DNA from: a virus
Taxonomy: Duplodnaviria > Caudoviricetes
Direction: 5' to 3' (one strand)
Length of the DNA stretch: 64,000 nt
IMG/VR virus record: IMGVR_UViG_3300021387_000090
Location: 1 to 64,000 of that record
In this document: piece by piece, positions 39,681 to 58,591 of the stretch
Layout of the letters: each line of letters opens with the position of its first letter
How positions within the stretch are numbered: position 1 is the first letter of the stretch
Translations under genes and position numbers: made by a program
The notes under the pieces: model-generated
Databases searched by the model: none
Told to the model about the DNA's origin: nothing
What the model saw: only the letters and a program-made list of their open reading frames with translations

Positions 39681-42600
39681 GTGCCTTCTAATTTTAGTGA
39701 TTTATTAAATAATGGAATTGTCAGCAATGATGAAGTAACCCCAACAGTTAATAGTAATAGATTAATGGCGGCTACAGATACTATTGCTGATGATACTGAA
39801 GAATGGACTAGAATAGTGAATGGTGTATATGAGTGGTATGATGAGTACACTGATGATCAAGGGCTGTCTACGGTTGATGCGAACAAACTTGTAACATTAG
39901 CGCCCAATCAAACCAATATCACGCAAGAAAGCAATTCACAATATATCAGTTTTAGAATGCAAAGATATTATGATGGCGTTGATCTTACTCAGATGACCAT
40001 TCGTTTTTATATCGTTAATTCTAAGAATGAGGGATATATTCTGCCAGCTTGTAATGTGTCGTATAATCAGAATTATATTAAATTTCATATGCTTGTAAAC
40101 GATGCTATGACACAAGTTGCTGGCACATTGAAATTTGAAATACAGGCTAGTGGTACGACTTCTGCGGGTACATACCGCTGGAAGACGAGATCTAATTCTC
40201 AATTAACTGTATTAGAAGCGTTATCTTATGATGATTTAATTGAGCCTAGTGATGGTTGGCAATCTTATCTGATTCAAATTGATAATGCAGTATCACAGGC
40301 TGAGACTGCTGCGCATACTGCTGAACAAGCGGTTGAATCTGTATCTGAAAAATTAGATGAATTTGATCAAGAAAAAGATAATGTAACTGCTGCTGTTGAG
40401 GAGAATGTCCGAAATGACATGAACGATACTATTGCCAATGCGCTTAGTACTGCACTAGATGATTATTATACGAAAGATGAAGTAGACAGTAAAGCTACAA
40501 ATCTTACTGTTAACTATAATACTAGCACTCATGTAATGACTTTCTTAGATAATGGTACACAATTCGCAGAATATGATTTGTCACAAGATCCTTCTCAGAC
40601 ATGGACATCTAATTTTAGAGAAAATGCTATTGCATCTGATATTCAATCTGCTATTAATACCGCTTTAAATAATTATTATACTAAAGCAGAAATTGATGAC
40701 AGCTTATTAACCATTAATTCTGCAATCGATGCATTAGAAGCGAAGTTGGATGGTGACGATTATTATACTGCGTCTGAAGTAGATGCTAAAGTAGCAACAA
40801 AAGCGGATTCTTCTACCGTTACAGCTATCCAAAATCAAATGAATGAAATTGCTTCTACAGCAAATTCAAATAAATCTAATATTACAACTATTGGTACTAA
40901 GATAGCTGAGTTAGAAGACGCAATTGCTGATATTGATACTTCCGAGTCTGCTATTAAGTATTATATCACTTATGATACTGATGATAGCTTAAGTGATGCT
41001 GAGAAATATATGCTGACTCTTTGGACATATGAAGGGGATGAATTTGTTCGTTCTAATGCCACTGCTGTTTGTGCAGTAAAGGTTGTCGGAGGTGGTGGAG
41101 GTGGACAATCTTCCTCTTCTACTATTACAATCTCCTATATTACAACGACTCCTGTTATTGTAAGGACGGGATCCAATATTGTATTACAATATCATTATCG
41201 TTCTGTAGATACTTCTGGGGTAGATATTGGTGGTACTGCTACATGGAGAATTGGCAACACTATTATTGGTACTCAAGTATTGACATCTAATACAGATAAT
41301 GAATTTGATGTAACGAATTTTGTTTCTTTGGGTACACAAAAAGTAACCTTAAGTATTACAGATGATAATGGTACTCTTGCTACTCGTGTTTGGACAGTAC
41401 AAGTTGTAGATGTACGATTGGAATCTAGTTTTAATGATACTTTTACTTATCCTATGGGGCCAATAAGTTTTGACTATACACCTTATGGAAGTATTAGTAA
41501 AGTGGTTCATTTCAAACTTGATGGTAATGAAATTGGAACTGTAACAACAACCTCTTCTGGTTTGCCAATGGGATTTGATATTCCTACACAAACTCATGGG
41601 GCGCATTTGTTGGATGCTTATATTACAGCAACAATTAGTGGAACTGATATTGAAACGGATCATATTTATAAAGATATTATTTGGTATAATGAGAATTCTA
41701 CTATTCCTGTAATTGGTGTTAATACACAAAATATTACTGCACAACAGTATGATACCAATAATATTACTTATACGGTATATGATCCTAATACAGAAACTCC
41801 TACTGTAACTTTTGCAGTTGACGGTGAACCTATTGCTACAAATATTGTAACGAATGGTGCGCATATTTGGAGTTATAAAGGTACTGTAGTTGGTAATCAT
41901 GTTTTAACTATTACTTGTCGTGATGTTATTAAAACTATTAATCTTACTGTCACAAAATTAGATATTGATATTGAACCTATTACCGCTAATTTGCAATTGG
42001 ATTTTAATCCTACTGGAATGAGTAATAACAGTGCTGATCGTTTGTGGTCAAATGGTACTTATCATATGTCAGTATCAGATAATTTTGATTGGGTAAATGG
42101 TGGATATCAGCTTGATGAAAACGGTGATCAATATTTTGGTATTAAAGCGGGAACTACTGCAACTTTTGATTACAAATTATTTGGTGATGATGCTAAACGT
42201 AATGGTAAGGAATTCAAGTTGGTCTTTAAAGTAGCAAATGTACGGGATATTGACACTACATGGATGTCTTGTATGGGAACAACTGGTACTGCTAATGTGG
42301 GTATATATATGAAGCCTCATGAGGCATATATTAATTCAAGTACCAATACTTTAATGTCTCCCATTGCCGAGGAGGACATTATTGAGTTTGAATTTAATAT
42401 AGCTAAAGATACTGCCAACATTCCTATGGTTATGACTTATGAAGATGGTGTAGCCCTTCGTCCTAAAGTGTATGGTTCTGATGATTCTTTTACTCAAGAT
42501 ACGCCTACGGATATTGTATTTGGATCTACTGAGTGCGATATTCGAATTTATAGAATGAAATGCTATAACTCTTCTCTTTCTGACAGTAATATTTTAACGA

Positions 42601-45600
42601 ACTTTATTGCTGATGCTAGAAATGCTGAAGAAATGGTAAATCGTTATGATCGTAACCAAATTTATGATGAGAATAACAATTTGACCCCTGATAGCGTTGC
42701 AGAAGCTTGTCCTCAATTAAGAGTGATAAAAATTGATTGTCCTCATTTTACTAACGATAAAAAAGATAAAGTAGCAGACACTACCATCGAGTATATCTAT
42801 CGTGATGGTGATCCTGTATTGGATAACTGGATTGCTACTGGTGCTTCGCACAGCGGACAGGGGACAACTAGTAATGAGTATGCTGCTGCTGGACGAAATT
42901 TGGATCTGATAATGAATACAGATACTACGGTGATTACACTTGGTGATGGAACTACAACTGCAAGTAAGATTAGTTTAACTCGTACTTCAGTGCCTGTTAA
43001 CTACTTAAATGTGAAGGTGAATATTGCCAGTTCTGAAAATGCTAACAATGCTTTGTTACAAAAGAGATACGACAGATACTTACCATATGTAAGTGAGCCT
43101 AAAAAAGCAGATCCTAAAGTAAAGAACACGATGGAGTTTTATAACTGTGTAATCTTTGTGCGTGAGAACGATTCTGATCTTACTACTCATAGAGAATATG
43201 ATGATACTGATTGGCATTTTTATGCTATTGGCAATGTTGGTGATTCTAAGAAGACAGATAAAACTCGTGTTGTAGACTCTTCTGACCCTAAAGAATTCTG
43301 TGTGGAAATAATGGATAATACTTTCCCGAATTCGACATTCCCCGGTGGTACAGAAGCCTTAGCAAACTTGGACGCTGACACCTTTAGTGAAAAGACTGGT
43401 GAAACTTATGGTCTTCGGTATGAGTATAAGAATATAACCACCGAAGAACATGAAGCTAATCTTGAAGCTTTTAGAGATTTCTATAGATTTGTAGTTAATT
43501 CAACAGATCAGGAATTCCATGATAATCTTGGAGATTATTTCGTGTTAGATTCTGCTCTTTATTTCTATCTTTATACTCTGCAATGGACAATGATTGATAA
43601 CCGTGCAAAGAACACTTTCTGGTGGAGACATAAATGTGAAGATGGTGAATATAGATTTGAATTCTGGGGATACGATTTTGACTCGGGCCTCGGAATCAAC
43701 AATTCGGGCGAGATGACAATGCCTTATGGCAGAGAAGATATGGATTATCGAACAGAAGGAGATCCTAATTCTGGGTATATCTTTAACGCCGCTGAATCCA
43801 CATTCTTCTGTCGTGTGAGAGATTTGTTCCAGACTGAACTACAAGCCATGTATCTGACTTGTGAATCAAACAATGCTTGGAATCCCGAAAGTATGATTCA
43901 AGAGTTTGATAATTGGCAAGCACAATTCCCTGAAGAATTATGGAGATTAGATATTACCAATAAATATATCAATTCTTATCTTGGAAAGGGTAGATTCTAC
44001 TCTGCTACACCTCGTTTCTTAACTACCATGATGAATGGACGTAAGAAATATCATAGACGGCAGTTTATCAGGGATCAAGTAATGTATATGGCAACTAAAT
44101 GGTATGGTAGTTATGCTACGTCTGATCAGATCATGTTTAGATGTAACACACCCACATCTGCTGTTGTTTCTCCTGATTATACTCTGCATTTGACACCTTA
44201 CGCAGATATGTATTTGTCTGTAATGTTTGGTGCGACTTCTAGAAAACAGGTTCGTGCAAAAGCTGGCATTGAATATACTATTACTTGTCCTCTTACAACG
44301 ATGGATGATACAGCGGTGCTGATTTATGGCGCCTCTAGGATTCAATCTGTGGGTGATTTAAGTACTTGTTATGTACATGATAATGATTTCTCAAAAGCCG
44401 TAAAGCTTCGTTCTTTGACAATTGGTAGTACTATAGAGGGATACAACAATGTATTCTTGACTACTCTTAATTTAGGTAATAATGCGTTATTACAAACTCT
44501 TGACATTAGAAATAATCCTAATCTGACAGGAACTTTAAATCTGTCTGGATGCCCTAGCCTAGAAACTTTACAGGCTACTGGAACAAGTTTGACTGGTGTT
44601 ATATTTGCAGATGGTGGTAAAATTAAGACAGCTTATTTACCTGCAATAAATTCTTTGACAATAAAGAATTTGTTATATTTAACCACTTTGTCATTAGCGG
44701 GGTATAATAATTTGTCAAGGATTGTGGCAGAAAATTGCCCTACTGTTGATCTAATTGCAATTATTACGAACGCCACTGCATTAACAAGATTAAGGGCTAC
44801 ACAGGTTGATTGGACAGTAGTTGACAATTGGTTGAAACCATTATTGAATCTTTCAGGCGTGGATGCGTCTGGTTATGATACAACGAAATCTGTATTAACT
44901 GGTACTGCTCATTTAGCGGCTACAGATACCTTTACTCTGAATGAATATAACACACAATGGCCTGATTTGGTTATTGATGTACCACCTTCAGCAGTATTAC
45001 AAGCCTATACCGTAACCTTTAAGAATCCTGAAATAGATCCTGAAAAAAAGGTTCTTGATGTACAACATATTATTGAAGGTGAGAATGCTGTAGATCCTAT
45101 TACTCGTGCGGTTAATCCTATTGCTATTCCCACTATGGTTGTTTATCTGGAAGATGGAAAAACCATTGCTAAAGACTATACATTTACTGGATGGGATTTA
45201 GCATTAACCAATATTAGGAGTAATCGTACAATTACAGCAGTTTATGATGAATCAGAACATCAATATACTGTACGGTTTTTAGATTTGGATAATACTGTAT
45301 TAGAAACTATTCAAGCACCTTACGGCTCTAGTGTTGAATATTCTGGTACAACGCCTGTATACACCAAGCAAGAGTCCTCTTATGTATATAATTTATTTGA
45401 GGGTTGGGATAGTTATCCTATTGTAACAGGAGACATTGATATTAAGGCAAAATATCAAACTTATCGTTATAACGAAGAAGAATTGAATAATATGAGTTTA
45501 TCACAAATGACCCCTACTCAAATTTATTCCATCCTTCAGAACAAACGGAGTGGTGCATTACCAATAACCATTAATTCTAAAGATAGTATTAGTTTTAAGG

Positions 45601-46763
45601 TAGGTATTGATTATGAATATGATAATGTTGAGTCTGTAGAACTCTTCCAAACTGAAAGAACTTTTAACGGCACATCGAATGATTATTATGATACAGAAAT
45701 TGCTTTATTAGATAATGATTCTGATTGGACGTTGGTTATTGATTATAAATGGGATTCTACTGCTGCAAATAATAGCGTTTTATTCCAATGTTATCAAGGC
45801 TATGGTTCTAATGGTTTTAGATTTAGAAATACAAGTGGCTATAAGGTCATTTGGGGAACTAATAATTTATCTGTAGGTGCTGTAAATACTAGAGATATGA
45901 TCGTATTACGACATCTTGCTGGCAATAATACATTGCATATTTATTCTGGTAATCTGCCTAATGAAACTATTTTCTATAATACATTATCTGCGACTCGAAG
46001 CGTAACAACCAATAATGCAACTCTTGTATTTGGGGCTTCTATCGATGATGATGGTGCTGTGAGTTCTTATGCTAAAGGGACTATTTATTCTGCCAAACTT
46101 TATTATGCTGATCTTGGCGATAAAGCTTGTCGAGATATGGTATTATGGCCTAGAGAAACTATTACCGCTGAAATGGCGGGATTTAGAAGATATTACTTGG
46201 CTGATGGTTCTGGTGCAAGAAGCAATATGACTTTCTTAGGTAGTCATTTGCTGTCCAACCCTATGAATGTAATGTCTGGGGGAAGTAATGTGGGTGGATG
46301 GCTTGTTACTCCTAATAGAAGAATTTTAAACAATAGATTCTATAATGCTATTCCTATTTTATGGAGACAGTTAATTAAGCAAGTTCAGATTTCTGCCAAT
46401 ACAGGACACATTGAAACAGCAACTAACGAAACAAATGCGGAAGTAACTACAGGTGCATGTTACATTGCTCTTCCGTCTATTTTATCATTAAATGCTAACT
46501 ATGATCGAATACCATATAACTTGGAAGCGGGTGAGCCTGATGCTTATGGTAATTATACCATCGATTATGTTCTTACCAACGAAAATAGAATGAGATATTA
46601 TCCTGACGGAACTTTAGGAAAATATGCTACAAGATCTGCCATGCCTAATTATAACTATACATGGTTTTATATTGTAGGCACTGATAATTATTATGCCGCT
46701 GGTTCTGAAGATTATTGGTCACCTTCAGGTGATATGGGTATATGTATCGAGTTTTCAATTTAA
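39681..46763 (+). CDS. giant multidomain tail protein: BppU-like N-terminus, coiled coil, Ig/LamG-like, CotH-kinase-like, LRR, B-repeat-like and C-terminal C-type-lectin-like domains
   Basis: GTG start after AAGGAGG. Motifs: YYTK.E.D repeats; IDNRAKN...YDFDSGLG; L..LNL...L..LD LRRs; YTFTGWD/FEGWD; SNVGGW...TRS...GICIEFSI terminus. Confidence 0.75.
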
Positions 46764-46826: not shown

Positions 46827-47159
46827 ATGATTAAGTATTTTAAAATTATTTGGAATCGTAATGTAATTGATTTATTGCATTATGATGAATTAGTTGGGCC
46901 AACATATATCAAATTTCAAGAGGTTCATGGAATCCCACTGCGATGTGGGAAAGTGGATGCTCAAGGATTTCTATCTGATTATGATAAGATTTATAATACA
47001 AGTGATTTGTTGCCATTTCCTTCTAATAATATGTATCCTACTGTTACCTTAGAAGAAATTTCTGAAAATGAATATAATGGTATTAAGAGTAAAGATTTTA
47101 AAACCGCTCAACAAATTAGGGAAGATTTCTTAATAGAGTTGTTAGAAAGGGGTTTTTGA
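46827..47159 (+). CDS. hypothetical tail protein (XkdW-like position)
   Basis: AAAGGAG RBS; precedes an XkdX-like gene. Confidence 0.6.
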   Translation: MIKYFKIIWNRNVIDLLHYDELVGPTYIKFQEVHGIPLRCGKVDAQGFLSDYDKIYNTSDLLPFPSNNMYPTVTLEEISENEYNGIKSKDFKTAQQIREDFLIELLERGF

Positions 47160-47160
47160 T

Positions 47161-47313
47161 ATGGAAAAAGACGTTATTAAATATGATGATACTGTCATTA
47201 CTCTTAAATCCTTGTACGAACAAAAGCGAATTGATAAAACAAAAGTCCAACTATTATTTGCAAGTAAAAAAATTACGTTGGAAGAATATGAATATATAAT
47301 TAACGAGAAATAA
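47161..47313 (+). CDS. XkdX-like small protein (50 aa), absent from the ORF track
   Basis: MEKDVIKYDDTVITLKSLYEQKRIDKTKVQLLFASKKITLEEYEYIINEK; KIT.EEY..I motif; GAAAGGGG RBS; fills the intergenic gap. Confidence 0.75.
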   Translation: MEKDVIKYDDTVITLKSLYEQKRIDKTKVQLLFASKKITLEEYEYIINEK

Positions 47314-47329
47314 GAAAGGAGGATGTACT

Positions 47330-48010
47330 ATGAATACATATCTGTTTCAAAATGATAACAGTATCATTCTTACAGAGTCTACTGGTGCAATTACAGAACG
47401 TAGTAATTCTGTTGATACATTAAGAATTGTCGTACCTAAATTATATAATGAGACATTCGATATGAGTGAATTCAGTGGGCTTTTTGAATACAAACTGCCT
47501 ATTAGTAATGCATCTGGTCTGTTCGAATTGGTACTTGCAGATGATAATTATAAAGAAGATTATTTATTGTATACCCTTCCTGATACTGTATTAACTACTG
47601 ATCTTACTAAAGAAGTTGGGAATGTTGAATTTAGTTTAACATTCGCAAAAGCTGAATTAGATGAAGAGGGCAATACGATTGAAAGGATCCGTCAAAGTGC
47701 TGGTCATGCAATTTTAAAGATTATTCCTATTGCAAGTTGGTTAACTCCTTCTGATAAAGAGATATCTACGCTTGCTTCAATGTATATTGAAAATAAGAAA
47801 GTTGCTCTGGCTCTTGCTGATCTTGCCGCTACATTGGGCAATACCAAATTAGATGATTTAGTTGTAAATACTGATGATAATAGATTGTATGGTACGGCAA
47901 ATGGTGCTATTACTGGTGAGGGCGTTGATTTAGCAACACTGAATCAAATCTTAGTTAGACTTGGTGGTTCTGCTGCGGATAATGGTAATATTCATATTCA
48001 GCAAATCTAA
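47330..48010 (+). CDS. second BppU-like baseplate protein
   Basis: DTLRIVVPKLY...LTKEVGNVEFSLTF resembles the BppU N-domain. Confidence 0.55.
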   Translation: MNTYLFQNDNSIILTESTGAITERSNSVDTLRIVVPKLYNETFDMSEFSGLFEYKLPISNASGLFELVLADDNYKEDYLLYTLPDTVLTTDLTKEVGNVEFSLTFAKAELDEEGNTIERIRQSAGHAILKIIPIASWLTPSDKEISTLASMYIENKKVALALADLAATLGNTKLDDLVVNTDDNRLYGTANGAITGEGVDLATLNQILVRLGGSAADNGNIHIQQI

Positions 48011-48024
48011 AGGAAGGTGATTTT

Positions 48025-48918
48025 ATGGCAATGGACTATAGATCACATTCTAGATTTTTCTTCACGGATTATCGAAGAATACAAGATGCAATAAATGCAG
48101 GAACAATTAATCAATGGGACATTGTATTATGTTCTGATACACAAGAAATGCTTCTTGTCGGTGAAAATTTTGATTTAATTCCTATTCATTCTAAGGTATA
48201 TCGATTTGTTAGTGTATCTGATGCTGAAACATATCTAAACACTGCAACAGATAGTTATCAAGGTCAGATTGTTTCAATTCTTGATACAACATCTGGTACA
48301 TATAAAGCTTATATGGTAAATGGCAGCACAGGACATTATTATGTTACTGCTATCAGTGTTTATAATGCCTCAGATATTAATTACAACGAAATTGGAAATC
48401 GTCCTATAGAACAATTATATGGAGACATTGAGCATCCTGTAGTGCTTTCATCTTTAGAAAATGGATTTTATAAAGTCCATGGTGCATATAAAGTAAGCAC
48501 TAAATTAATTACAATTTTTCAAAGTGATGGGAATCATGTTATTGTAGTAAATCATAACGAACCTGAGTCTGAAGAAAATACTGAAACTACTAGTATTAAA
48601 GTAATTACAGATGCCTCAATAACAGATTATATTGTCAATAACACTGACACTGTTATTGAGAGAAATAATTATGCTACAAAGCAATGGGTTGAATCTCAGG
48701 GATATATTACTGATGCTGACTTTGATGCAAAAATTCAAGCATTGGATATTATGACCAGAGAAAATGCCGAAGCGTATATTCAAGAATTAATTCGTGAAGG
48801 TGTGGAAAATATAGTAACTGAAATGTTTGATGATCAATTTAACGAAAGATTTGACACAAGATTAGATATAAAGATGCAAGCAGAAGATAATAGTTCTATC
48901 CAAAACTTGTTTAATTAA
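48025..48918 (+). CDS. tail fibre adaptor protein
   Basis: N-terminus similar to the 35321 protein; YQGQIVSI, YNEIGNRP and YATKQWV fibre motifs. Confidence 0.65.
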   Translation: MAMDYRSHSRFFFTDYRRIQDAINAGTINQWDIVLCSDTQEMLLVGENFDLIPIHSKVYRFVSVSDAETYLNTATDSYQGQIVSILDTTSGTYKAYMVNGSTGHYYVTAISVYNASDINYNEIGNRPIEQLYGDIEHPVVLSSLENGFYKVHGAYKVSTKLITIFQSDGNHVIVVNHNEPESEENTETTSIKVITDASITDYIVNNTDTVIERNNYATKQWVESQGYITDADFDAKIQALDIMTRENAEAYIQELIREGVENIVTEMFDDQFNERFDTRLDIKMQAEDNSSIQNLFN

Positions 48919-48954
48919 ATCCTCAAGCTTAATTAAGTAGAAGGAGGTAACTAT

Positions 48955-49587
48955 ATGGCTAAATATATTTCGTTAGATAATCTAACTACATATGATGGTC
49001 TAATAAAACAATTGATAACAACGACACATGCGCAGTCTATTCAAACTGTAGCATTGTCTAATGATAACACACAACTTTTATTTTATAAAGAGTCTGAACC
49101 GCTGAGTGCGGGTGCATCTCCTGCTTATAGTATTACAATTCCTCATCAAAGCTTGGATGCATTAATGCGGAAAGTAATTTCTGCTACGAGTGGGAACATT
49201 GCTGTTTTTGATGCTAATGGTGCGGTGATTGATGGTAATGTCGCATTAAACGATCTCGTTACCGAAACAGAGGTGCAAACTATTGTTAACCAAGCAGTAG
49301 CCGCCGCTAATATGATTCAGGCTCAAATTGTAGAAACATTGCCCGATCCTGCAACTGCGAGTTCAAATATTATTTATCTGATTAAAGATAATGCATCAGG
49401 TGCTGATGATAAGTATAAAGAATATATGCTTATTAGTGGTACAATGACAATGATTGGGGACACAGGAGTCGATCTGACTGGCTATGCTACTGAACAGTAT
49501 GTAAATGACCGTATTGCGGCTTTGAATATTCCTGACATTCAAGCGGCAACTACTGCGGAAATTCAGGCGTTATTTACGACACCTTAA
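48955..49587 (+). CDS. tail fibre/adaptor protein
   Basis: IVETLP...NIIYLI...YKEYM..IG..VDLTGYAT motif common in fibre proteins. Confidence 0.7.
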   Translation: MAKYISLDNLTTYDGLIKQLITTTHAQSIQTVALSNDNTQLLFYKESEPLSAGASPAYSITIPHQSLDALMRKVISATSGNIAVFDANGAVIDGNVALNDLVTETEVQTIVNQAVAAANMIQAQIVETLPDPATASSNIIYLIKDNASGADDKYKEYMLISGTMTMIGDTGVDLTGYATEQYVNDRIAALNIPDIQAATTAEIQALFTTP

Positions 49588-49631
49588 TTTAAGGAATAAT
49601 TAAGAATATTATAAGAAAGGAGGATTCTCAT

Positions 49632-49916
49632 ATGGCAAGTTCTGCGGATGCCAACAAATATATTAATCTTCCGGGGTTAGAAACATATACTGAGGAAATC
49701 AAGAAATTAATTCGACAAATGATTAATGAATCCTCTGATGATTTTGAAATAGTTACTGCGGATACTTATTTAGAGTTCCCACTTATTGGTAACGAAGATA
49801 AATTATATATCGACTCTGGGGCAAATAAGACTTATAGATGGGATGATACGAATTTAAAGTATTATTGTGTTGGAAGTGATTATGATGATATTTCTCAGAT
49901 CGATGGAACTTTTTAA
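49632..49916 (+). CDS. small fibre adaptor protein
   Basis: FPLIGNEDKLYID...YRWD motif; ends in IDGTF. Confidence 0.65.
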   Translation: MASSADANKYINLPGLETYTEEIKKLIRQMINESSDDFEIVTADTYLEFPLIGNEDKLYIDSGANKTYRWDDTNLKYYCVGSDYDDISQIDGTF

Positions 49917-49933
49917 AGAAAGGAGTATGAACG

Positions 49934-51535
49934 ATGGCTAATACTACTCTCAAGTCAAGAATAGTTTTATGTTCAAAAACTTCTACACAATGGGCACAAT
50001 CAGCTAATGCGTCTCTCGTACCGTTAAAGGGTGAGATCTGTGTAGAAACATTTACTGATGCCGCCCCAAAAATAAAAATTGGTGATGGTACAACTACTTT
50101 TGCCAATTTGCCATATGCAACTTTAACAGAAGCTGAAATTCGTTCTATTGTTAATCAGGCCGCATATAATTTGCAACCCGCTACTTCAAGTGTACTTGGT
50201 GGCGTAATGATTGGTTCTAATGTTGATGTTGCCTCTAATGGTACGATTAGTATTAAAGATGCTTCAACCTCTCAAAAGGGTGTTGTTCAATTGAATGATG
50301 CTATTAATAGTACATCTACTACGCAAGCTGCCACTGCGAATGCTGCTAAGAAAGCTTATGATCGTGGTAGTACTGGTATTACTAATGCGGCAACAGCACA
50401 AGCGGCAGCAGAAGCGGCTCAACAGGCGGCTGATCAGGCTCAAGATACCGCTGATGCCAAGATTGGCAGTGTTACTTTAAGTGGTGGCACTAATAACGGC
50501 ACTTTGAAATTAACTGTTGATGGTACTGCTACAGACAACATTGCCGTTACAGGGCTTGGGTCTGCAGCCTATACTGCGACTACTGCTTATGCTACTTCGG
50601 CTCAAGGTACAAAAGCTGATAATGCTATGCCGAAGTCTGGTGGTACTTTTACAGGCGCTGTAACACTGAATGCAGATCCTACCGCCAATCTTGGTGCGGC
50701 TACTAAGCAGTATGTTGATACGCAGATTACAAGTAAAATTAGCGCATCCGATGCTATGGTGTTTAAAGGCACTTTAGGTAGTGGTGGTACTGTAACCGCT
50801 GTTCCCACGACTGGTGTAGTTAAGGGCGATACTTATAAGGTTATTACGGCTGGCACATGGGCGGGTTCAGCTTGCAAAGTTGGTGATCTGTTAATCGCTT
50901 TAAATAGTGGTGCAATTACTGCTAATACAGATAACTGGGCCTATGTACCTTCTGGCGATGAGGCCATTACTACTATTAAATATAGTACCACAACACAGAA
51001 CTTAACGACATCTGCTCAGACTGGTGCTATCACCGTTGGTGAAGCCGCCACAAAGCAAGTCGATACAAGTATTTCTGCGGCTTCTACTTCCACTAAACTG
51101 CCCACATCAGCGGCTGTTGCAAGTTTTGTCGAGGGTAAGGGATACGTTACTACAGACAACAAAGTAACTAATACTCTGAACACTACTACAAAAGCATACG
51201 TCACTGGTACGACTAGTGCTACAACTAATACTGGTGGACAGGTATTTGATACTGGCGTTTATCTTGATACTACAGCAGGTACTTTACATGCTACTAAAAT
51301 GACAGCTACTACATTTGAAGGTGGATTAACTGGTAAAGCAACATCTGCGGGTGCGGCAGATACAGCGGGGAAATTAGCCTCAAGTGTGAATGTAAAAGCA
51401 ACTGGAAAAGCTAGTGGTTCTACAACAACTTTTGATGGTTCTAGTGAATTGCAAGTAAATATTACGTCTTTTGACTCCGCAGGATTAACTCAAACTAGCG
51501 GAGACTATTTAATTCTAGACGGCAATTTTGGTTAA
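49934..51535 (+). CDS. tail fibre protein with Mtd/hyaluronidase-type N-terminal domain
   Basis: PLKGE...KIKIGDG...LPY; ASTSQKGVVQL, GGTFTG and ATKQYVD fibre repeats; very Thr/Ala-rich. Confidence 0.8.
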   Translation: MANTTLKSRIVLCSKTSTQWAQSANASLVPLKGEICVETFTDAAPKIKIGDGTTTFANLPYATLTEAEIRSIVNQAAYNLQPATSSVLGGVMIGSNVDVASNGTISIKDASTSQKGVVQLNDAINSTSTTQAATANAAKKAYDRGSTGITNAATAQAAAEAAQQAADQAQDTADAKIGSVTLSGGTNNGTLKLTVDGTATDNIAVTGLGSAAYTATTAYATSAQGTKADNAMPKSGGTFTGAVTLNADPTANLGAATKQYVDTQITSKISASDAMVFKGTLGSGGTVTAVPTTGVVKGDTYKVITAGTWAGSACKVGDLLIALNSGAITANTDNWAYVPSGDEAITTIKYSTTTQNLTTSAQTGAITVGEAATKQVDTSISAASTSTKLPTSAAVASFVEGKGYVTTDNKVTNTLNTTTKAYVTGTTSATTNTGGQVFDTGVYLDTTAGTLHATKMTATTFEGGLTGKATSAGAADTAGKLASSVNVKATGKASGSTTTFDGSSELQVNITSFDSAGLTQTSGDYLILDGNFG

Positions 51536-51596
51536 TTAATAATAAAGGAAGAAAAAGGAATAATATGAACATAACATTTTTGAATGATAAGACAAT

Positions 51597-51634
51597 AAGA
51601 GGTGAGATTATAAAAACAATTTCACCTCTTTTTA
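51597..51634 (+). terminator. terminator-like hairpin (a second follows at ~51649-51690)
   Basis: aagaggtga...tcacctctt followed by a T run. Confidence 0.5.
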
Positions 51635-51730
51635 ATTTATGAAAAATCAAAGAAGTTTTGAAAATCCTTAATTCCTCAAACTTCTTTTTTATATATAAAC
51701 GAACGTATAAAAATGAAAGGAGGATGACAC

Positions 51731-54700
51731 ATGGCTGATACGACACTTAAAGTACGCATGACTGCAGCAAGAAAAACTGAGTCAGAGTGGAACGTTACTA
51801 CAATCATTCCCAAAGAGAATGAGGTACTTTACACCAAGGGCGGGTTACACGATGGCGAATATAAGATCGGGGATGGAACCCATAGATGGTCTGATCTTGA
51901 TTACATAAAACCATCTTATACTTATCCCGAATTAGAACCATTGATGACCAAAACCTACAATAATGTAATTTGTACGGCAAATTCAGATCCTGCAGGATAT
52001 TTATATTTTATGACCATAAAACCTAATAATTATAATACGGCTTGGACAATAAGATATAGAGTCCATGCTACTATAGCGGGTGTTACTGGTGGATATCAAG
52101 ATTCAGAAGTACTTATAGAAGGAACACGAAACACTTATTTGGCATATAGTACTTATAATGCAGTTAATAATACTTCTTATAGGCCCTATTATTATCATAT
52201 GTATTTTGCCGCTAATGAAACAGGACAAGCAAATAATTATCCTCATCTACTTGGCTTTAGATTTCAATCATCTTATAATCCTGCGACAACGGCAAATTCT
52301 CGTACTATTGTAATTGAAATTTTAGAATATAAAAATTGTACCCTGACTTTTTTAGATACTATGAAGTTATTCGCTGATATGCCGGGGTCTAATTCTACTA
52401 ACTATGGTAATACCAGTAGTGGAGCAAACGCAACTCGTTATAGTTTTGATGGTACGACTCAGGGTTGGACATTTGTTGGAGATAGAAATACTTATCCATA
52501 TTTATTATCAGCTTATTACACAAGACCTTATGCGGGTGTAAATGGTACAAAACAATATAGTTTAGCTATGGAAGATTCTGTTGGGAGGCTTCAAAGTTTT
52601 ACTACTACGCATGGTACAGGAACAAGTAAAGCAAAAAACACACAAGGTTTTAGACTTGGTAGAATGTATTATCTTAATTCTTCTGGCAATTATACGGAAG
52701 GACAACAATTTGGTAATGATGTATCAAGAGTATTCCAATCTGATATGGACTTACGGTATTCAACTAATTGTGGAACAACTCTAACTGCATTTAAGCCTGT
52801 ATATATAGTAGGTACTGTTAACCCTATTACTAATCTATTTTATTTAGATGATACATGGTGGACACAAACATTGCCCACATCTGAAGACGGTAAAATATAT
52901 ATTTATATTGGTTGTCCTTATGATACTTATCGCTTAACTTTTGAAGGTTATCACGATCCTGTTTGGTATAAAGATGGGGCGATAAGACCTTTTTATGGAA
53001 ATACATTAAATGTTGAGCAATTACAGGAAATGAGAGATAGCGTCATAGAAGATTCCACTCCCTATTTATTTAGACCTTCTGCTAATGGGAATAATATCGG
53101 AGATAGAGAATACCCGGAAATTATTGGCGGTACGGTGGCGTGGAATCAGCATGTTACTTTTTCTCAGGCAACTTATACCGAAAAAGGGCTTACAATCAAA
53201 AGAAATGCAGATGGAACTATTGAAATAAGCGGAACAGCAACTGAAGATTGGTACAGCAATATCGGAAATACGGTAACTTCTTTTCTCAACCATAAGATTT
53301 TGATAAAAGGATGCCCGTCGGGAGGTTCTTCTTCGACATATTCAATGCGTGATGGATACACAGCAGGTGACAAATATAAAGATTTTGGCGACGGTAATAT
53401 CGTTGTCGGTAAAGCAAATTTCATCATTCAGATTATAGTGGGAAGAGGAACAGCATTGTCTACACCGATTATCTTTAAACCGCAAGCATTCGACCTCACC
53501 GCCATGTTCGGCACATCCATCGCAGACCAAGCCTACGCAATGGAGCAGGCAACAGCCAAGAGTGGAATTGCATGGCTTAAGTCGATGGGATTTTTTACCG
53601 CAGACTACTACCCGTATGATGCCGGGACGCTGAAGAGCGTGGAGGGGTTGGCATCGCACGATATGATTGGGTTTAATCAGTGGGATGAAGAGTGGGAAAG
53701 CGGATATTATGACGCAAACGGTCAACCTGTGACAAATTCCTTAACCATTCGTTCAAAAAATTACATTGAAGTAATGCCCGACACAGCATATTTTTTTAAA
53801 GCAACAAGCGGAACAAACAACCGAATTTGTTATTTTGACGTAGACAAAAATTTTATTTACAGAACCGATTTGCGTACGCCTGATACCGCATTCACGACTC
53901 CGACTAATTGCCGGTTCGTCATGTTCCATAATGACGGCACAACCTACAGCAACGACATCTGCATCAACCTCTCCGACCCCGCCAAAAACGGTACATACGA
54001 ACCATACGAAAAGCACAGCTACCCTCTCGACAGCACACTCACGCTCCGGGGTATTCCGAAACTGGTTGACGGGAAGTTGCAGCATGATGGGGATAGGTAT
54101 GCGAGTGATGGGACGGTGACGAGAAGGTATGGCGTGGTGGTGTATGACGGATCAGCAGACGAAACATGGGTTTATGAATCCTCAAATAGGCATTTTTACA
54201 TTGGTCTTGACAACGTAAAGCGGTCAAATGACTATGAAAAGTGCATGGTGTCCAACATCAAGGTCGCATCGAAGGCTTATTCGTGGAGTGCTGATGCAGT
54301 CCCGATGGTGTCTGCGTATGGAAACACTTCGGCGTATCCCGGCAAAAACTGGATATATATTAAACCGAACACTGATTCCGTGACAGATGTTGCGACATTT
54401 AGAACATGGCTTTCTGCCAACCCTGTTACGGTTGTCTACGAACTCGCCACCCCCACAACTGAAACAGCACAGCCTTTCCAGTCTCCACAAATTGTAGATG
54501 ATTTCGGGACAGAAGAGTATGTTATCGCTAATACTGTGGATGTACCGATTCCTGTTGGGCATAATACGAAATACGAATTAAAAACAGGTATCACAACTCA
54601 TGGCGAAGTGGTTGACGCTGGAGTACTGAATTCTTTTTATACTATGATTAAAAATGAATTTGTTTCTACTAAGGGTGACATTATGACTGGCCCTTTGACA

Positions 54701-57103
54701 TTAGATGCAGATCCCACTTTAGCAATGCAACCTGCAACTAAAAAATATGTAGATCAAAAAATAGGGACTGCATATGAGTCAAAAGATGCTGAACAAAATG
54801 GAACCGAAGTATCTCTCGTAACGACTGGTGAAAAATATAATTGGAATCAAAAGACAACTACAAGTTTTACTCCTACATTAAGTACTGGAACTAAAATCGG
54901 GACAATTACTATTAATGGAACTGCAACAGACTTATATTGTCAGACAAATACAAACATATTAACTGGTGTGAAAGGTAGTGCTGAATCTACTTATAGAACT
55001 GGCAATGTGAATTTAACGCCTGTGAATATTGGTGCGCTTGCGCTTACTGGTGGGACGCTGACAGGAAGTGTTACTATTGGGCAAACTACTGATACTGCTG
55101 TAAGAACTATGGCAGTGCAGAATTCGCTTAGTAATGTAGCATTAGCTGTCGGTGGGGATGGAAAACACGGTATTTTTTCGAACACTAAGGGCGATTGGCT
55201 GCTGTATGCAACGAAAGACGCAAATAGTACTAATTCAACACTTTATGTACCAAGACCACTTAGCGTTTCTGGACTTACTAGTGTAAGTAACAATGTCATA
55301 GCTACAGCAAGCGACACGAGTGAGCGGTATTTTCGAGCGGTTAACAGTAACGGATCTATCGAACTAAACGCATCAGCCGGGAACAAGGGCGTGTATGATC
55401 GTAGCGGTGGAAGATGGATCATGTATCTAGCTACCAATAGTGCGGCAGACACGGCGGTAATAATACCGAGAGGTTTGCAAGTTGGCGAAGCCGGGATAAA
55501 TGGGTACATTGAACTGTACCATGCTACCCCCTATATTGATTTTCATTATGGTAGAAGTACCGCAGATTATACAACAAGACTCATTGAAAATGCATCTGGT
55601 GTACTGACAATTGAAGGAAGGCTTTATAATTCAAGAGTACCGGGTTCTTGGGTTGCTGCAATAAAAACCGCAGCATTAACAGTTAATATGGCTTCAACTA
55701 CAAGCACAAGTGCAGCTATAAGTGGTATGACCATAAGAACTAAAAATGGTTATATTAGTTTAGATACTATTCCAACTACTGATGATAATTTATATATACA
55801 TTATATTTCCACCGCTAATTATAATGCAGGAACTAATACAGTTTCTGCGGCGAAAGTAAGTTGTAATATTACAGGTCATGCCGATGGCGATCTTCCTTTA
55901 ACAGGTGGGTCATTGACAGGAAACCTTTTTGTCAGCGCTTCAGACACCAGTGAGCGACAAGTTAGCATATCTAATTCTTTAGGACACGTATATCTCGATG
56001 TAAGTACCTCTGGTAATCATGGTTTATATTCTGGCACAAAAGGCGGTTGGATCATTTATTGTACTAAGGATGCTAGCTCAACGAATTCATGGGCATACAT
56101 ACCTAGAGCATTAAATGTATCAGGTCATATACATTCTAGTAATGAAATTCATTCTGGTGGTAAATCCACATCTCAGGACGGTCACGCTGGTGCAATTTTA
56201 AGTGGCGGTGGTCATTTATATTTACAACAAGGCGCTACGGGGAGCAATATCTACTTCATTTGGGGGGCTGGTAAAACAATAACGTCAAGAATTTACGAAT
56301 CTGCAAGTGGGACCCTTACAGCAAGCGGAAATTGGGATGTTGGGGGAAAAATACATGCAACTGGTAATATTACTTCCACAGCTCATGTATCTTGCGGTGG
56401 TAAAGAAAGTGGAGGAGATGGAAATCCTGGTTGTTTTATGAATAATGGTGGTTCTTTCTTTATTACTGGGCCAGCAAATAGCGGAGGCACAATTTTCTTC
56501 CACTATAATAAAGCTACCTCAAATACATCCAAAATATATGAATCATCATCTGGAACTATTAAAGTTGATGCATATTTATGGGGGAAGAACTCTAGTGGTG
56601 GATCGCATATAGTTGTTACTACAGTAGATACAGATAATCAGAAAGTAGCGTACTTGTCTACTAATACAACCGCATTGTATGTAAATGCAAGACATGGTGG
56701 TTCTTCTTATGCTAATAAGAGTGTCACCCTTTCTTCCTCTGATGTTCGTTTAAAAACCAATATCGCAGATTCTACTATCAATGCTTTAGACGTTATAAAC
56801 AAGATCCGTATCAGAGAATTTGATTGGACAGATGAACGTGAAGATAAGCATCAAGTCATTGGTATGGTTGCTGATGAGATCGAGAAACTGGATAAGAAGT
56901 TTGCGGTCGGTGGTGGATATACTGAAGATGGGTGCATGAATATCAAGAGTGTAGATACTTTCTATTTGACTGGGTATTTGACAAAAGGTATTCAGGAATT
57001 GAATGGAAAGGTTGACGGTCACGATGATAGGATTGCCGCATTAGAGAGGGAAAATAAAGAACTGCGGAAAGAGATTGAAGAATTGAAAAAAGAAATAGCT
57101 TAA
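51731..57103 (+). CDS. large mosaic tail fibre/receptor-binding protein with C-terminal S74 chaperone
   Basis: N-terminal YKIGDG..WSDL.Y domain; internal repeats; SSDVRLK...GMVADE followed by coiled coil. Confidence 0.8.
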   Translation: MADTTLKVRMTAARKTESEWNVTTIIPKENEVLYTKGGLHDGEYKIGDGTHRWSDLDYIKPSYTYPELEPLMTKTYNNVICTANSDPAGYLYFMTIKPNNYNTAWTIRYRVHATIAGVTGGYQDSEVLIEGTRNTYLAYSTYNAVNNTSYRPYYYHMYFAANETGQANNYPHLLGFRFQSSYNPATTANSRTIVIEILEYKNCTLTFLDTMKLFADMPGSNSTNYGNTSSGANATRYSFDGTTQGWTFVGDRNTYPYLLSAYYTRPYAGVNGTKQYSLAMEDSVGRLQSFTTTHGTGTSKAKNTQGFRLGRMYYLNSSGNYTEGQQFGNDVSRVFQSDMDLRYSTNCGTTLTAFKPVYIVGTVNPITNLFYLDDTWWTQTLPTSEDGKIYIYIGCPYDTYRLTFEGYHDPVWYKDGAIRPFYGNTLNVEQLQEMRDSVIEDSTPYLFRPSANGNNIGDREYPEIIGGTVAWNQHVTFSQATYTEKGLTIKRNADGTIEISGTATEDWYSNIGNTVTSFLNHKILIKGCPSGGSSSTYSMRDGYTAGDKYKDFGDGNIVVGKANFIIQIIVGRGTALSTPIIFKPQAFDLTAMFGTSIADQAYAMEQATAKSGIAWLKSMGFFTADYYPYDAGTLKSVEGLASHDMIGFNQWDEEWESGYYDANGQPVTNSLTIRSKNYIEVMPDTAYFFKATSGTNNRICYFDVDKNFIYRTDLRTPDTAFTTPTNCRFVMFHNDGTTYSNDICINLSDPAKNGTYEPYEKHSYPLDSTLTLRGIPKLVDGKLQHDGDRYASDGTVTRRYGVVVYDGSADETWVYESSNRHFYIGLDNVKRSNDYEKCMVSNIKVASKAYSWSADAVPMVSAYGNTSAYPGKNWIYIKPNTDSVTDVATFRTWLSANPVTVVYELATPTTETAQPFQSPQIVDDFGTEEYVIANTVDVPIPVGHNTKYELKTGITTHGEVVDAGVLNSFYTMIKNEFVSTKGDIMTGPLTLDADPTLAMQPATKKYVDQKIGTAYESKDAEQNGTEVSLVTTGEKYNWNQKTTTSFTPTLSTGTKIGTITINGTATDLYCQTNTNILTGVKGSAESTYRTGNVNLTPVNIGALALTGGTLTGSVTIGQTTDTAVRTMAVQNSLSNVALAVGGDGKHGIFSNTKGDWLLYATKDANSTNSTLYVPRPLSVSGLTSVSNNVIATASDTSERYFRAVNSNGSIELNASAGNKGVYDRSGGRWIMYLATNSAADTAVIIPRGLQVGEAGINGYIELYHATPYIDFHYGRSTADYTTRLIENASGVLTIEGRLYNSRVPGSWVAAIKTAALTVNMASTTSTSAAISGMTIRTKNGYISLDTIPTTDDNLYIHYISTANYNAGTNTVSAAKVSCNITGHADGDLPLTGGSLTGNLFVSASDTSERQVSISNSLGHVYLDVSTSGNHGLYSGTKGGWIIYCTKDASSTNSWAYIPRALNVSGHIHSSNEIHSGGKSTSQDGHAGAILSGGGHLYLQQGATGSNIYFIWGAGKTITSRIYESASGTLTASGNWDVGGKIHATGNITSTAHVSCGGKESGGDGNPGCFMNNGGSFFITGPANSGGTIFFHYNKATSNTSKIYESSSGTIKVDAYLWGKNSSGGSHIVVTTVDTDNQKVAYLSTNTTALYVNARHGGSSYANKSVTLSSSDVRLKTNIADSTINALDVINKIRIREFDWTDEREDKHQVIGMVADEIEKLDKKFAVGGGYTEDGCMNIKSVDTFYLTGYLTKGIQELNGKVDGHDDRIAALERENKELRKEIEELKKEIA

Positions 57104-57130: not shown

Positions 57131-58591
57131 ATGTCAGAAGTAACTATTGATGCACGAATATTAATGAATTGTCATACTGAGGCAGAATGGCAGACAACAA
57201 ATCCCATACCGAAAAACCGGGAATTATGCATTTCGACAGATAAAAATTATGGTCTTTATAAGATAGGCGATGGCGTACATACTTGGTCACAACTACCTTA
57301 TGTTTTACAAGATTTTGCAACGGGCACTACCCAAAACAAGACTACTGCGAATGATTATAACCTTTTATTTACTTCAAATGAAGTTTTGGAGGGTGAGTAT
57401 CAACCTACTAGTACATCAGGTGATTTAAGATTCCACACCTATATAAAAGGTAATTTAACAAAGGGTAGCCTTATTGCCAAAGGATACGAAGATGCGTACT
57501 ACACTGATACATATACTCCTGTGTCTGATGATCCTTTAGAAGTCTTGCCACCTATAACTCAAAATACATATTTTCCTGTAGCAGTAAGTTCTTTAATGAA
57601 TGAACAAAAAACTGGTAGTTCAAATGAAAAAGATCGAGTAGGTGTGCTTACGCTTAAAAATGGAAATGTAGACAATGCTTCTTCTATGGCATCTTCTCAG
57701 ATAATTGCAACTACAAATGGTGGCGTAAAAATTAGTGAAAACCAAGGTAGTACAAGTGGTGTCACTATAAGAAATAATGGTACTATTACATTAACGGATT
57801 CCAATGGTAACACTCTTCCAATCTCTGTACCTGCGTCAGATGCTTCAACTGTATACCTTCGTGGTGATGGTACTTGGAGTACTGTTAGTGGAGGTAGTGG
57901 ATCTTCTTTACAAAATCTTGTAGATGGTTCTGCTACTGGTTCTGTAAGAGGGATAGGTACAACAGCAGAAAGTGATACTTATACTATTGGTTCATATGCT
58001 TTTTCAGAGGGTTATTACACAAAAGCTTCAGGTAATTACAGCCATGCGGAGGGAGAATATACTACTTCTCAACGCAAATCTCAAACAACTATAGGTAGAT
58101 ATAATATTTTAGATACAACAAATTCTGAGATTTTTAATTATGGTTCTTATGCATTTATCATAGGAAATGGTACAGCAGATGATGCCAGATCAAATGCTTT
58201 AACTGTAGATTGGGACGGTAATGTCACTGCAACCACTTTTGTGCAGTCCTCAGATAAACGACTTAAAGATAACATTGAAAGTCTTGACAATAATTACGAG
58301 CGATTCTTTATGAATCTTCAACCATCTACATTTACTTTAAAACAAGATGAAACCAATAAAACACACATTGGCTTTATTGCACAAGATGTTGAGCAAGCTT
58401 TAATTAATTCAGAGTTAACAAAAGATGATTTTGCTGGATTAGTTACACAAGAAAACGGGGAGGATGAAAGTTATTATTTGTGTTATGATGAGTTTATCTC
58501 CTTAAATACACATATGATACAGAAACTATATCAACGGATTGAACAGCTTGAAGATAGAATCAAAGAGTTGGAATCCTCAACTGCTAAATAA
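57131..58591 (+). CDS. tail fibre protein with S74 chaperone
   Basis: YKIGDG..WSQLPY N-terminus; YLRGDGTW; ASGNYSHAEG (YadA-head-like); SSDKRLK...GFIAQDV. Confidence 0.8.
   Translation: MSEVTIDARILMNCHTEAEWQTTNPIPKNRELCISTDKNYGLYKIGDGVHTWSQLPYVLQDFATGTTQNKTTANDYNLLFTSNEVLEGEYQPTSTSGDLRFHTYIKGNLTKGSLIAKGYEDAYYTDTYTPVSDDPLEVLPPITQNTYFPVAVSSLMNEQKTGSSNEKDRVGVLTLKNGNVDNASSMASSQIIATTNGGVKISENQGSTSGVTIRNNGTITLTDSNGNTLPISVPASDASTVYLRGDGTWSTVSGGSGSSLQNLVDGSATGSVRGIGTTAESDTYTIGSYAFSEGYYTKASGNYSHAEGEYTTSQRKSQTTIGRYNILDTTNSEIFNYGSYAFIIGNGTADDARSNALTVDWDGNVTATTFVQSSDKRLKDNIESLDNNYERFFMNLQPSTFTLKQDETNKTHIGFIAQDVEQALINSELTKDDFAGLVTQENGEDESYYLCYDEFISLNTHMIQKLYQRIEQLEDRIKELESSTAK

Follow-up and report, generated by a model that had tools for sequence, protein, structure and literature searches.

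How are the products of neighbouring tail-fibre genes joined to each other, and is the order of joining written in their ends? Most fibre genes of metagenomic phages are unannotated. The question is raised by a fibre-gene cluster of a tailed virus (Duplodnaviria; Caudoviricetes), of which positions 1 to 64,000 of the record IMGVR_UViG_3300021387_000090 were analysed and are referred to here as the window. A preliminary description of this DNA had noticed that the C-termini of consecutive fibre proteins at 48025-51920 fall into two classes (tails t1 and t2), each followed by its own class of N-terminus (heads h1 and h2), and had proposed that short terminal peptides dock the segments in gene order. 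The present analysis favours this proposal in a modified form. It is fairly likely that the proteins are parts of a trimeric tail fibre, held together non-covalently by these matched termini and attached end to end in the order of their genes. Judged from sequence and from one structure model, the termini form a probable docking code. The genes concerned are the following.

47330..48010, + strand: gp47330, 226 residues, precedes the chain; C-terminus GNIHIQQI
48025..48918, + strand: gp48025, 297 residues; head of a third type, h0 (48025-48159), and t1 tail SSIQNLFN (48892-48915)
48955..49587, + strand: gp48955, 210 residues; h1 head (48961-49017), knob domain and t1 tail TAEIQALFTTP (49552-49584)
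49632..49916, + strand: gp49632, the 'converter', 94 residues; h1 head (49656-49712), knob (49743-49877) and t2 tail YDDISQIDGTF (49881-49913)
49934..51535, + strand: gp49934, middle fibre segment, 533 residues; Mtd_N-type h2 head (49934-50119), Phage_fiber_2 repeats and t2 tail DYLILDGNFG (51503-51532)
51731..57103, + strand: gp51731, distal fibre, 1790 residues; h2 head (51731-51910) and Peptidase_S74 intramolecular chaperone (56738-56890)
57131..58591, + strand: gp57131, second terminal fibre, 486 residues; h2 head (57131-57310) and Peptidase_S74

Matched termini in the window

The termini quoted in the preliminary description are all present at the genes concerned (gp48025, gp48955, gp49632, gp49934 and gp51731), and each tail type is followed twice by the same head type: h1 follows t1 after gp48025 and gp48955, and h2 follows t2 after gp49632 and gp49934. 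The t1 tails of the window have the form (E/S)-I-Q-x-L-F, the h1 heads the form KYI-x-L..L-x-TY...IK-x-LI and the t2 tails the form I/L-D-G-x-F, while the h2 heads are Mtd_N-type KIGDG domains. The N-terminus of gp48955 reads MAKYISLDNLTTYDGLIKQLI, with the h1 segment KYISLDNLTTYDGLIKQLI from residue 3, and the h1 segment of gp49632 is KYINLPGLETYTEEIKKLI, from residue 9. These two heads share 11 of 19 residues, only 5 of the 11 being encoded by the same codon, and the spacers between the fibre genes are unrelated to each other in sequence. The likeness of the h1 heads is thus hardly due to a recently duplicated stretch of DNA or to a linker used in recombination, and points to selection at the protein level. 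All three h2 heads begin at residue 1, at the extreme N-terminus of the protein. The C-terminus of gp51731 is a coiled coil beyond the Peptidase_S74 domain and lacks a t2 tail; gp51731 would thus terminate a chain.

In the proposed mechanism, the last ~11 residues (t2) of the upstream protein would lie on the first beta-strand and a nearby loop of a downstream Mtd_N-type trimer, forming a type-2 joint. In a type-1 joint, the C-terminal t1 peptide would pair with the N-terminal h1 segment. With the converter gp49632 attached, a chain that would otherwise end in t1 could receive fibres with an h2 head. The chain would thereby run from gp47330 via gp48025, gp48955, gp49632 and gp49934 to gp51731, with the S74-capped gp51731 and gp57131 as terminal modules. 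The stoichiometry is presumably trimeric, and the layout may be linear or branched. The picture of short peptides on both sides of a joint needs correction for type 2, because the socket is a domain of ~60 residues; the plug is a short peptide.

Evidence for the proposed type-2 joint

The h2 heads of the window are related to the Mtd_N domain at the level of profiles. A purpose-built h2 hidden Markov model (HMM) matched gp49934 (8e-27), gp51731 (1.6e-24) and gp57131 (2e-25). An alignment that includes the three window heads and the protein at L015:9497 (L and P numbers designate sampled loci and proteins), which itself reaches 42.8 bits with the Pfam model of Mtd_N (PF18454), gave an h2 profile that recognises the N-termini of HylP chains, with E-values from 2.6e-12 to 5e-9. 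A search of the phage's own genome yielded no Mtd_N hit at E 0.1 or better for gp51731. A tblastn search of the phage collection with a 93-residue h2 head had no match at E 1e-3; the full 322-residue protein gave matches. A scan of viral contigs with the DNA pattern for KIGDG..TW was rejected, as its matches were glutaredoxin-like genes and not fibres. The bodies behind the heads belong to known families: Peptidase_S74 (PF13884; cut-off 22 bits) scored 39.1 bits in gp51731 (residues 1670-1720) and 53.6 bits in gp57131 (374-425), in both cases close to the C-terminus, and Phage_fiber_2 (PF03406; cut-off 22 bits) 45.4 bits in gp49934. The repeat of gp49934 also aligns with protein S, the tail fibre protein in PDB entry 5YVQ. 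When the PDB was searched by sequence with gp49934 and with a gp48955 profile, the only hits were to fibre repeats and coiled coils.

Co-occurrence of tail and head was counted with the h2 HMM in 106 loci, which were chosen via the gp48955 knob or the h2 head and never via the tail. Pairs of genes at most 300 nucleotides apart were considered, and the t2 pattern was sought in the last 16 residues of the upstream protein. A t2 tail was located upstream of 170 of the 234 h2 genes, compared to 67 of 974 other genes. The four classes of pairs (t2 and h2, t2 only, h2 only, neither) amount to 170, 67, 64 and 907, which corresponds to an odds ratio of 36 and a Fisher P-value of 7e-96, although the loci are mutually related and P-values overstate their independence. 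Removal of identical tails leaves 108, 57, 48 and 727 pairs and an odds ratio of 29. The adjacency of t2 and h2 is thus far from random, as the preliminary description had predicted. The general form of the tail is ..D-x-L-I-L-N-G-G-(S/T/N)-A, i.e. hydrophobic-hydrophobic-x-G/C-G-(N/S/T)-A. It occurs in phages of very different hosts. In the Streptococcus pyogenes prophage Javan498 an upstream 'endopeptidase' ends in ..MILDGGS and is followed by the HylP hyaluronidase. Xylella phage Sano has the t2 tail ..YVLDGGGA ahead of an h2 gene, and Arthrobacter phage Paella two consecutive t2-h2 joints (..VVDGGTP, then ..SIDGGTP). The rule is also obeyed in the crAss-like phage PhiCrAssBcn20 of Bacteroides, and in Bordetella phage BPP-1 the tail fibre Bbp9 ends in ..LADLGGIA immediately before Mtd.

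The geometry of these pairs bears on the idea that tail and head are both bound to some third component, for example an assembly chaperone or a baseplate hub, rather than to one another; their genes would then be neighbours because parts of one hub are regulated together. Such an arrangement would accommodate h2 genes that lack an upstream t2 tail as well as the three h2 heads and two t2 tails of the window. However, the tail lies immediately before the head, at a median gap of 24 nucleotides, the joints occur in runs of two or three, no candidate third partner co-varies, and the contacts in the structure model described below are direct. A common third partner is considered unlikely.

The motifs are also confined to the ends of the proteins. 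Of the h2 domains, 250 of 255 start no later than residue 15, the remaining five being miscalled starts or tandem heads. A set of 17 large proteins with several knobs showed no internal t2 motif; the knob-plus-tail motif occurred once in this set, at the extreme C-terminus of P0128. The t2-h2 pairs represent 29 combinations of 11 upstream and 17 downstream body clusters. This is of importance for an explanation in which the motifs are conserved module boundaries (folding or trimerisation caps) that were spread by cassette duplication or recombination, without contact between tail and head. Fibre genes are known mosaics, most of the bodies fall into a few large single-linkage clusters, and the presence of h1 as well as t1 in gp48955 is what the duplication of a module would produce. 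On the other hand, gp48025 possesses t1 without h1 and gp49632 combines h1 with t2, codons differ at conserved residues, and the pairing survives unrelated bodies and phages of different bacterial phyla. As the motifs are strictly terminal and the model puts the tail on the head, boundaries without contact are an improbable explanation. A further alternative derives the pairs from one long ancestral fibre gene that broke up at domain borders into pieces which may or may not still assemble; it would be in line with the modular bodies of the fibres. Among the sampled proteins, however, no t2-h2 or t1-h1 junction was found within a single chain; a fused t1-h1 form was also not found among longer relatives of gp48955, where the hits share only the knob. 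Since split pieces must still dock to give a working fibre, gene fission represents an origin story rather than a rival mechanism, and as a rival it is very unlikely.

Direct docking of a t2 tail on an h2 head was modelled with gp49632 and residues 1-100 of gp49934, each present as three chains. The 3:3 model reached interaction prediction scores from aligned errors (ipSAE) of 0.83, 0.83 and 0.77, whereas none of three controls scored above 0.01, with a predicted local distance difference test (pLDDT) of 86-89 for the partners and a contact agreement between runs of at least 88%. In calibration 58 of 80 solved complexes reached the score mark, as did 2 of 110 mismatched pairs, a guide that is rough here because of own alignments and the 3:3 set-up. 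The modelled interface comprises residues 64-65 and 84-94 of gp49632 and residues 1-14, 28 and 30-31 of gp49934. Contacts thus fall on the t2 tail and on the first strand and neighbouring loop of the head, each tail touching two head chains. In the AlphaFold2 monomer of gp49632 (overall pLDDT 69) the knob is confident (87) and the tail poorly defined (51-54), which fits a tail that becomes ordered upon binding. The PDB sequence search with the h2 head returned isolated HylP trimers and no like complex, although a divergent cryo-electron microscopy example is possible. Thus there is no evident solved complex that the model could have memorised. Binding of the gp49632 tail to the gp49934 head is therefore supported by the model, and this modelling of one cognate pair favours the preliminary description.

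Several observations weigh against a docking code. The tail matches within the window comprise only 4-5 residues and are insignificant by themselves; they gain their weight from orthologue conservation and from co-occurrence in other phages. The window heads stay below the curated Pfam cut-off for Mtd_N of 26.3 bits (gp49934 16.5 bits, gp57131 22.7 bits), and the D-G-x-F tail of the window is a local variant that departs from the common G-G-x-A; both forms are linked within the gp49632 family, for example by ..LINGGSSSSFE in P0038. The loose t2 pattern matches ~7% of other genes, and about one quarter of the h2 genes have no t2 tail next to them, such as those of cyanophage S-CAM8 and Gordonia phage Patio. 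In L004 the h2 gene is separated from the tail by two small intervening genes. In the window itself gp57131 follows gp51731 and has no t2 tail directly upstream, so that three h2 heads face two t2 tails. This may reflect alternative or competing distal fibres: gp57131 would then be an alternative h2-headed terminal fibre that competes for the t2 site or sits elsewhere. With this third h2 fibre, which the preliminary description had overlooked, the layout may branch or be heterogeneous instead of forming one simple daisy chain. On the structural side, a high score such as that of the 3:3 model may also arise for relatives of a true partner, and the termini in the monomer models of gp49632 and gp48955 are of low confidence and too weak to show joints (gp48955: overall pLDDT 61, N-terminal 25 residues below 50, C-terminal region ~61-66, knob ~80).

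The putative converter, the type-1 pair and a third class

The converter is a member of a large family. An exhaustive search with gp49632 yielded 478 representative relatives at E 0.001 or better, mostly of 70-230 residues, which share the knob and the C-terminal motif ..Y-Y-C-V-G-S-D-Y-x-D-I-x-I-I-N-G-G-N-A. Their N-termini are highly variable and include h1, h0, h2 and many others. Five diverse relatives were sampled blind to their neighbours, and in all five loci an h2 gene lies directly next; in four of them this gene itself ends in t2 and is followed by another h2 gene. One of the five is located in a baseplate cluster of the myovirus type, L135. The role of gp49632 as a converter with a type-1 head and a type-2 tail, as first suggested from the window, is thus favoured by its relatives. 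The protein matches neither Pfam nor PHROGs. In a Foldseek search of its model against the PDB no match at E 0.001 or better was obtained, and the knob gave only weak, non-significant hits to CBA120 TSP3 and to podophage tail proteins (probability 0.54-0.69, E above 1).

The type-1 pair was followed in the relatives of gp48955 and gp48025. Fifteen relatives of gp48955 (40-79% identity) keep the h1 head and the t1 tail (consensus ATEADIRALFA) around a variable middle, and most of them carry an additional coiled coil; orthologues of gp48025 end in ..SEIANMFNN, ..QEIIGLFNN or ..QDIRDIFVT. In general terms t1 reads acidic-I-x-x-L-F at the C-terminus and h1 K-Y-(I/L)..L..Y...IK at the N-terminus. 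The Streptococcus prophage Javan105 harbours two such joints, ..ITNIELEELLK before MATKYLDNNGLLYVWKKIK.. and ..ITNEEIDVFFV before MAKKFLSKEGLDRFYEKIK.., as does the faecal phage fragment MT837651, and L139 and L140 show t1-h1 joints with different bodies. A t1-type tail lies upstream of all four sampled h1-headed converters, two of which belong to the lineage of the window. These cases were read by eye; the first t1 pattern missed tails like AEIQALF, so that the t1 pattern counts are underestimates. Crossed pairs (t1-h2 or t2-h1) were not seen in the sampled loci. Both motifs are predicted to be helical with low confidence, and the recurrence of the sequences suggests that the t1 tail contacts the h1 head.

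A third class consists of the tails ..ALTWQEG, ..SLTLTEF and ..SLAIIEF before heads of the form M-A-L-V-x-F...Y.....K-D-x-x-T-L-Y-F..D...I-Y-x-G. The h0 head of gp48025 is of this kind and is also present in L016, L133, L140 and P0190-P0204. Because gp48025 follows gp47330, the chain probably begins one gene earlier than the position 48025 at which the preliminary description had placed its start. No match to gp47330 was found in Pfam or PHROG, but the gene is syntenic in L003, L004 and L006, where its tail is kept as ..GN(V/I)K(V/I)Q(I/N)(F/I). It may represent a proximal anchor with a third-class tail (t0).

The order t1-h1, t1-h1, t2-h2, t2-h2 is kept in syntenic contigs (L003, L004, L006, L007, L008, L138 and L141) though the bodies differ. 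In L006 a 384-residue protein replaces the 94-residue converter, retains the h1 head and a ..LVLDGS.. tail and precedes an h2 gene. In L003 an extension at the C-terminus buries the I-I-D-G motif of the converter, and h2 is missing from the two genes that follow; a gene with h2 and t2 and a further h2 gene are located further on, past an integrase gene. It is conceivable, although this wider claim is tentative, that phages with hosts among Actinomycetota, Bacillota, Bacteroidota and Pseudomonadota share a docking code of at least three classes (t0/h0, t1/h1 and t2/Mtd_N), uncrossed in the sample and rewired by converters.

Further features were observed in these loci. At L003:14463-15749 a ribbon-helix-helix gene and a tyrosine-integrase gene lie within the fibre cluster, just ahead of the h2-t2 and h2 genes; this arrangement may be a fibre cassette switch or an insertion. 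L138 (logan SRR27608084 contig, 161,617 bp) is translated correctly only if TAG is read as glutamine, with in-frame TAG codons in several fibre genes, and may be a stop-codon-recoded phage of the lineage of the window. L006:12054-18704 contains the tails ..DTLVFTIS and ..GTVTYSPS before the heads M-A-D-T-Q-H-L-I-S-H-I-T-L-P-S-G-T-T-Y-E-I-K-D and ..I-S-T-V-T-L-P-D-G-S-L-H-E-I-G, possibly a further pair class, and this type of head recurs at L015:6760 and L015:7495. Three small consecutive proteins at L018:42-1362 have the tails ..ENIDFSNIL and ..GNIDFANYFK, followed by the heads MGYISKEYLTTQFQNFADRI and MGFVSKQYLQTQFTNFATRI, which resembles a t1/h1-like pairing in unrelated proteins. The knob of the gp48955/Javan105 family also matches a 549-residue protein of an archaeal virus, Methanobrevibacter smithii tailed virus 1 (L132, PP537965.1; tblastn E 7e-9).

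The window derives from a complete virus record of 154,699 bp with direct terminal repeats. It has a G+C content of ~34% and carries all of its large genes on the + strand. Their products include a distal tail protein of the DUF6558 type and several fibre proteins that are between 1700 and 2400 residues long. The fibre cluster forms the distal part of the tail module, immediately ahead of the lysis genes. Upstream of the baseplate genes, a single open reading frame of 5300 codons (11906-27808) is unusually long and presumably encodes the tape-measure protein. A tail protein of 2360 residues (39681-46763) ends in ..GICIEFSI, similar to the t0-type tails ..SLAIIEF and ..SLTLTEF, and the two small genes after it (46827-47313) are without an h0 head; an h0-type head is common to gp35321 and gp48025. 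The 195-nucleotide gap between gp49934 and gp51731 (51536-51730) contains a GC-poor hairpin with a run of T behind it (AGAGGTGAGA...TCACCTCTTTTT). This looks like an intrinsic terminator, and the distal fibre gp51731 may be a separate transcription unit.

Significance and comparison with known systems

The Mtd_N domain has long been presumed to be an attachment domain, and if the joints are real it gains a defined partner. The termini alone would then reveal the order of the segments, the attachment point of receptor-binding modules and small adaptor proteins that are otherwise annotated as 'hypothetical'. They would also explain the exchange of very different distal modules on a conserved proximal fibre, by which receptor-binding modules would be swappable as first proposed. 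If the docking code holds, assembly order and branching of fibres could be read from sequence. The 94 residues of gp49632 and ~100 residues of gp49934 make up a small complex that is tractable for structural biology. The C-terminal partner of Mtd_N, the breadth of the pairing and the converter family appear to be undescribed in the literature searched, in which no paper describing the t2 tail motif was found. The published accounts of BPP-1, as far as accessible, do not describe a motif of the fibre-side partner of Mtd, and the crAss001 atlas left the fibre joints unresolved. In contrast, assembly of fibres in gene order and exchangeable spikes on adaptors are already known.

Among the closest known systems are proteins with the same type of head. 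In BPP-1, Mtd, the founder of Mtd_N, has the same N-terminal head domain and sits on Bbp9, whose tail is of the t2 type. PDB 1YU0 exemplifies the trimeric beta-prism fold of Mtd_N. However, BPP-1 possesses a single joint and no converter, whereas the window heads are below the Pfam cut-off and their partner tails read D-G-x-F instead of G-G-x-A. The hyaluronidases HylP1-3 of streptococcal prophages (PDB 2C3F, 2DP5 and 6X3M) match the h2 profile with their N-termini, but were solved as isolated homotrimers in which no joint is visible. As enzymes built on a triple-stranded beta-helix, they differ in their bodies from the Phage_fiber_2 repeats or S74-capped fibres of the window.

The long tail fibre of T4 (gp34-gp35-gp36-gp37) consists of successive segments that are encoded by consecutive genes and joined end to end in gene order. 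The proposed chain would resemble it in this respect. T4 differs in its monomeric hinge protein and its dedicated chaperones, and no sequence relation to the window proteins was found: their Pfam, PHROG and PDB sequence searches returned no match to the gp34-gp37 segments or the gp9/gp10 sockets. The joints of the window would instead use short reusable tail classes and a portable N-terminal domain, and its distal fibres have their own S74 chaperone. The tailspikes of CBA120 and G7C, which have docking domains like those of T4 gp10, and the gp37 adaptor of K1-5/SP6 with N-terminal docking peptides likewise use small modules to attach exchangeable receptor-binding proteins. In those phages the spike plugs in with its N-terminus, for which a domain of the adaptor forms the socket, whereas in the window the plug would be the C-terminal peptide of the upstream protein.

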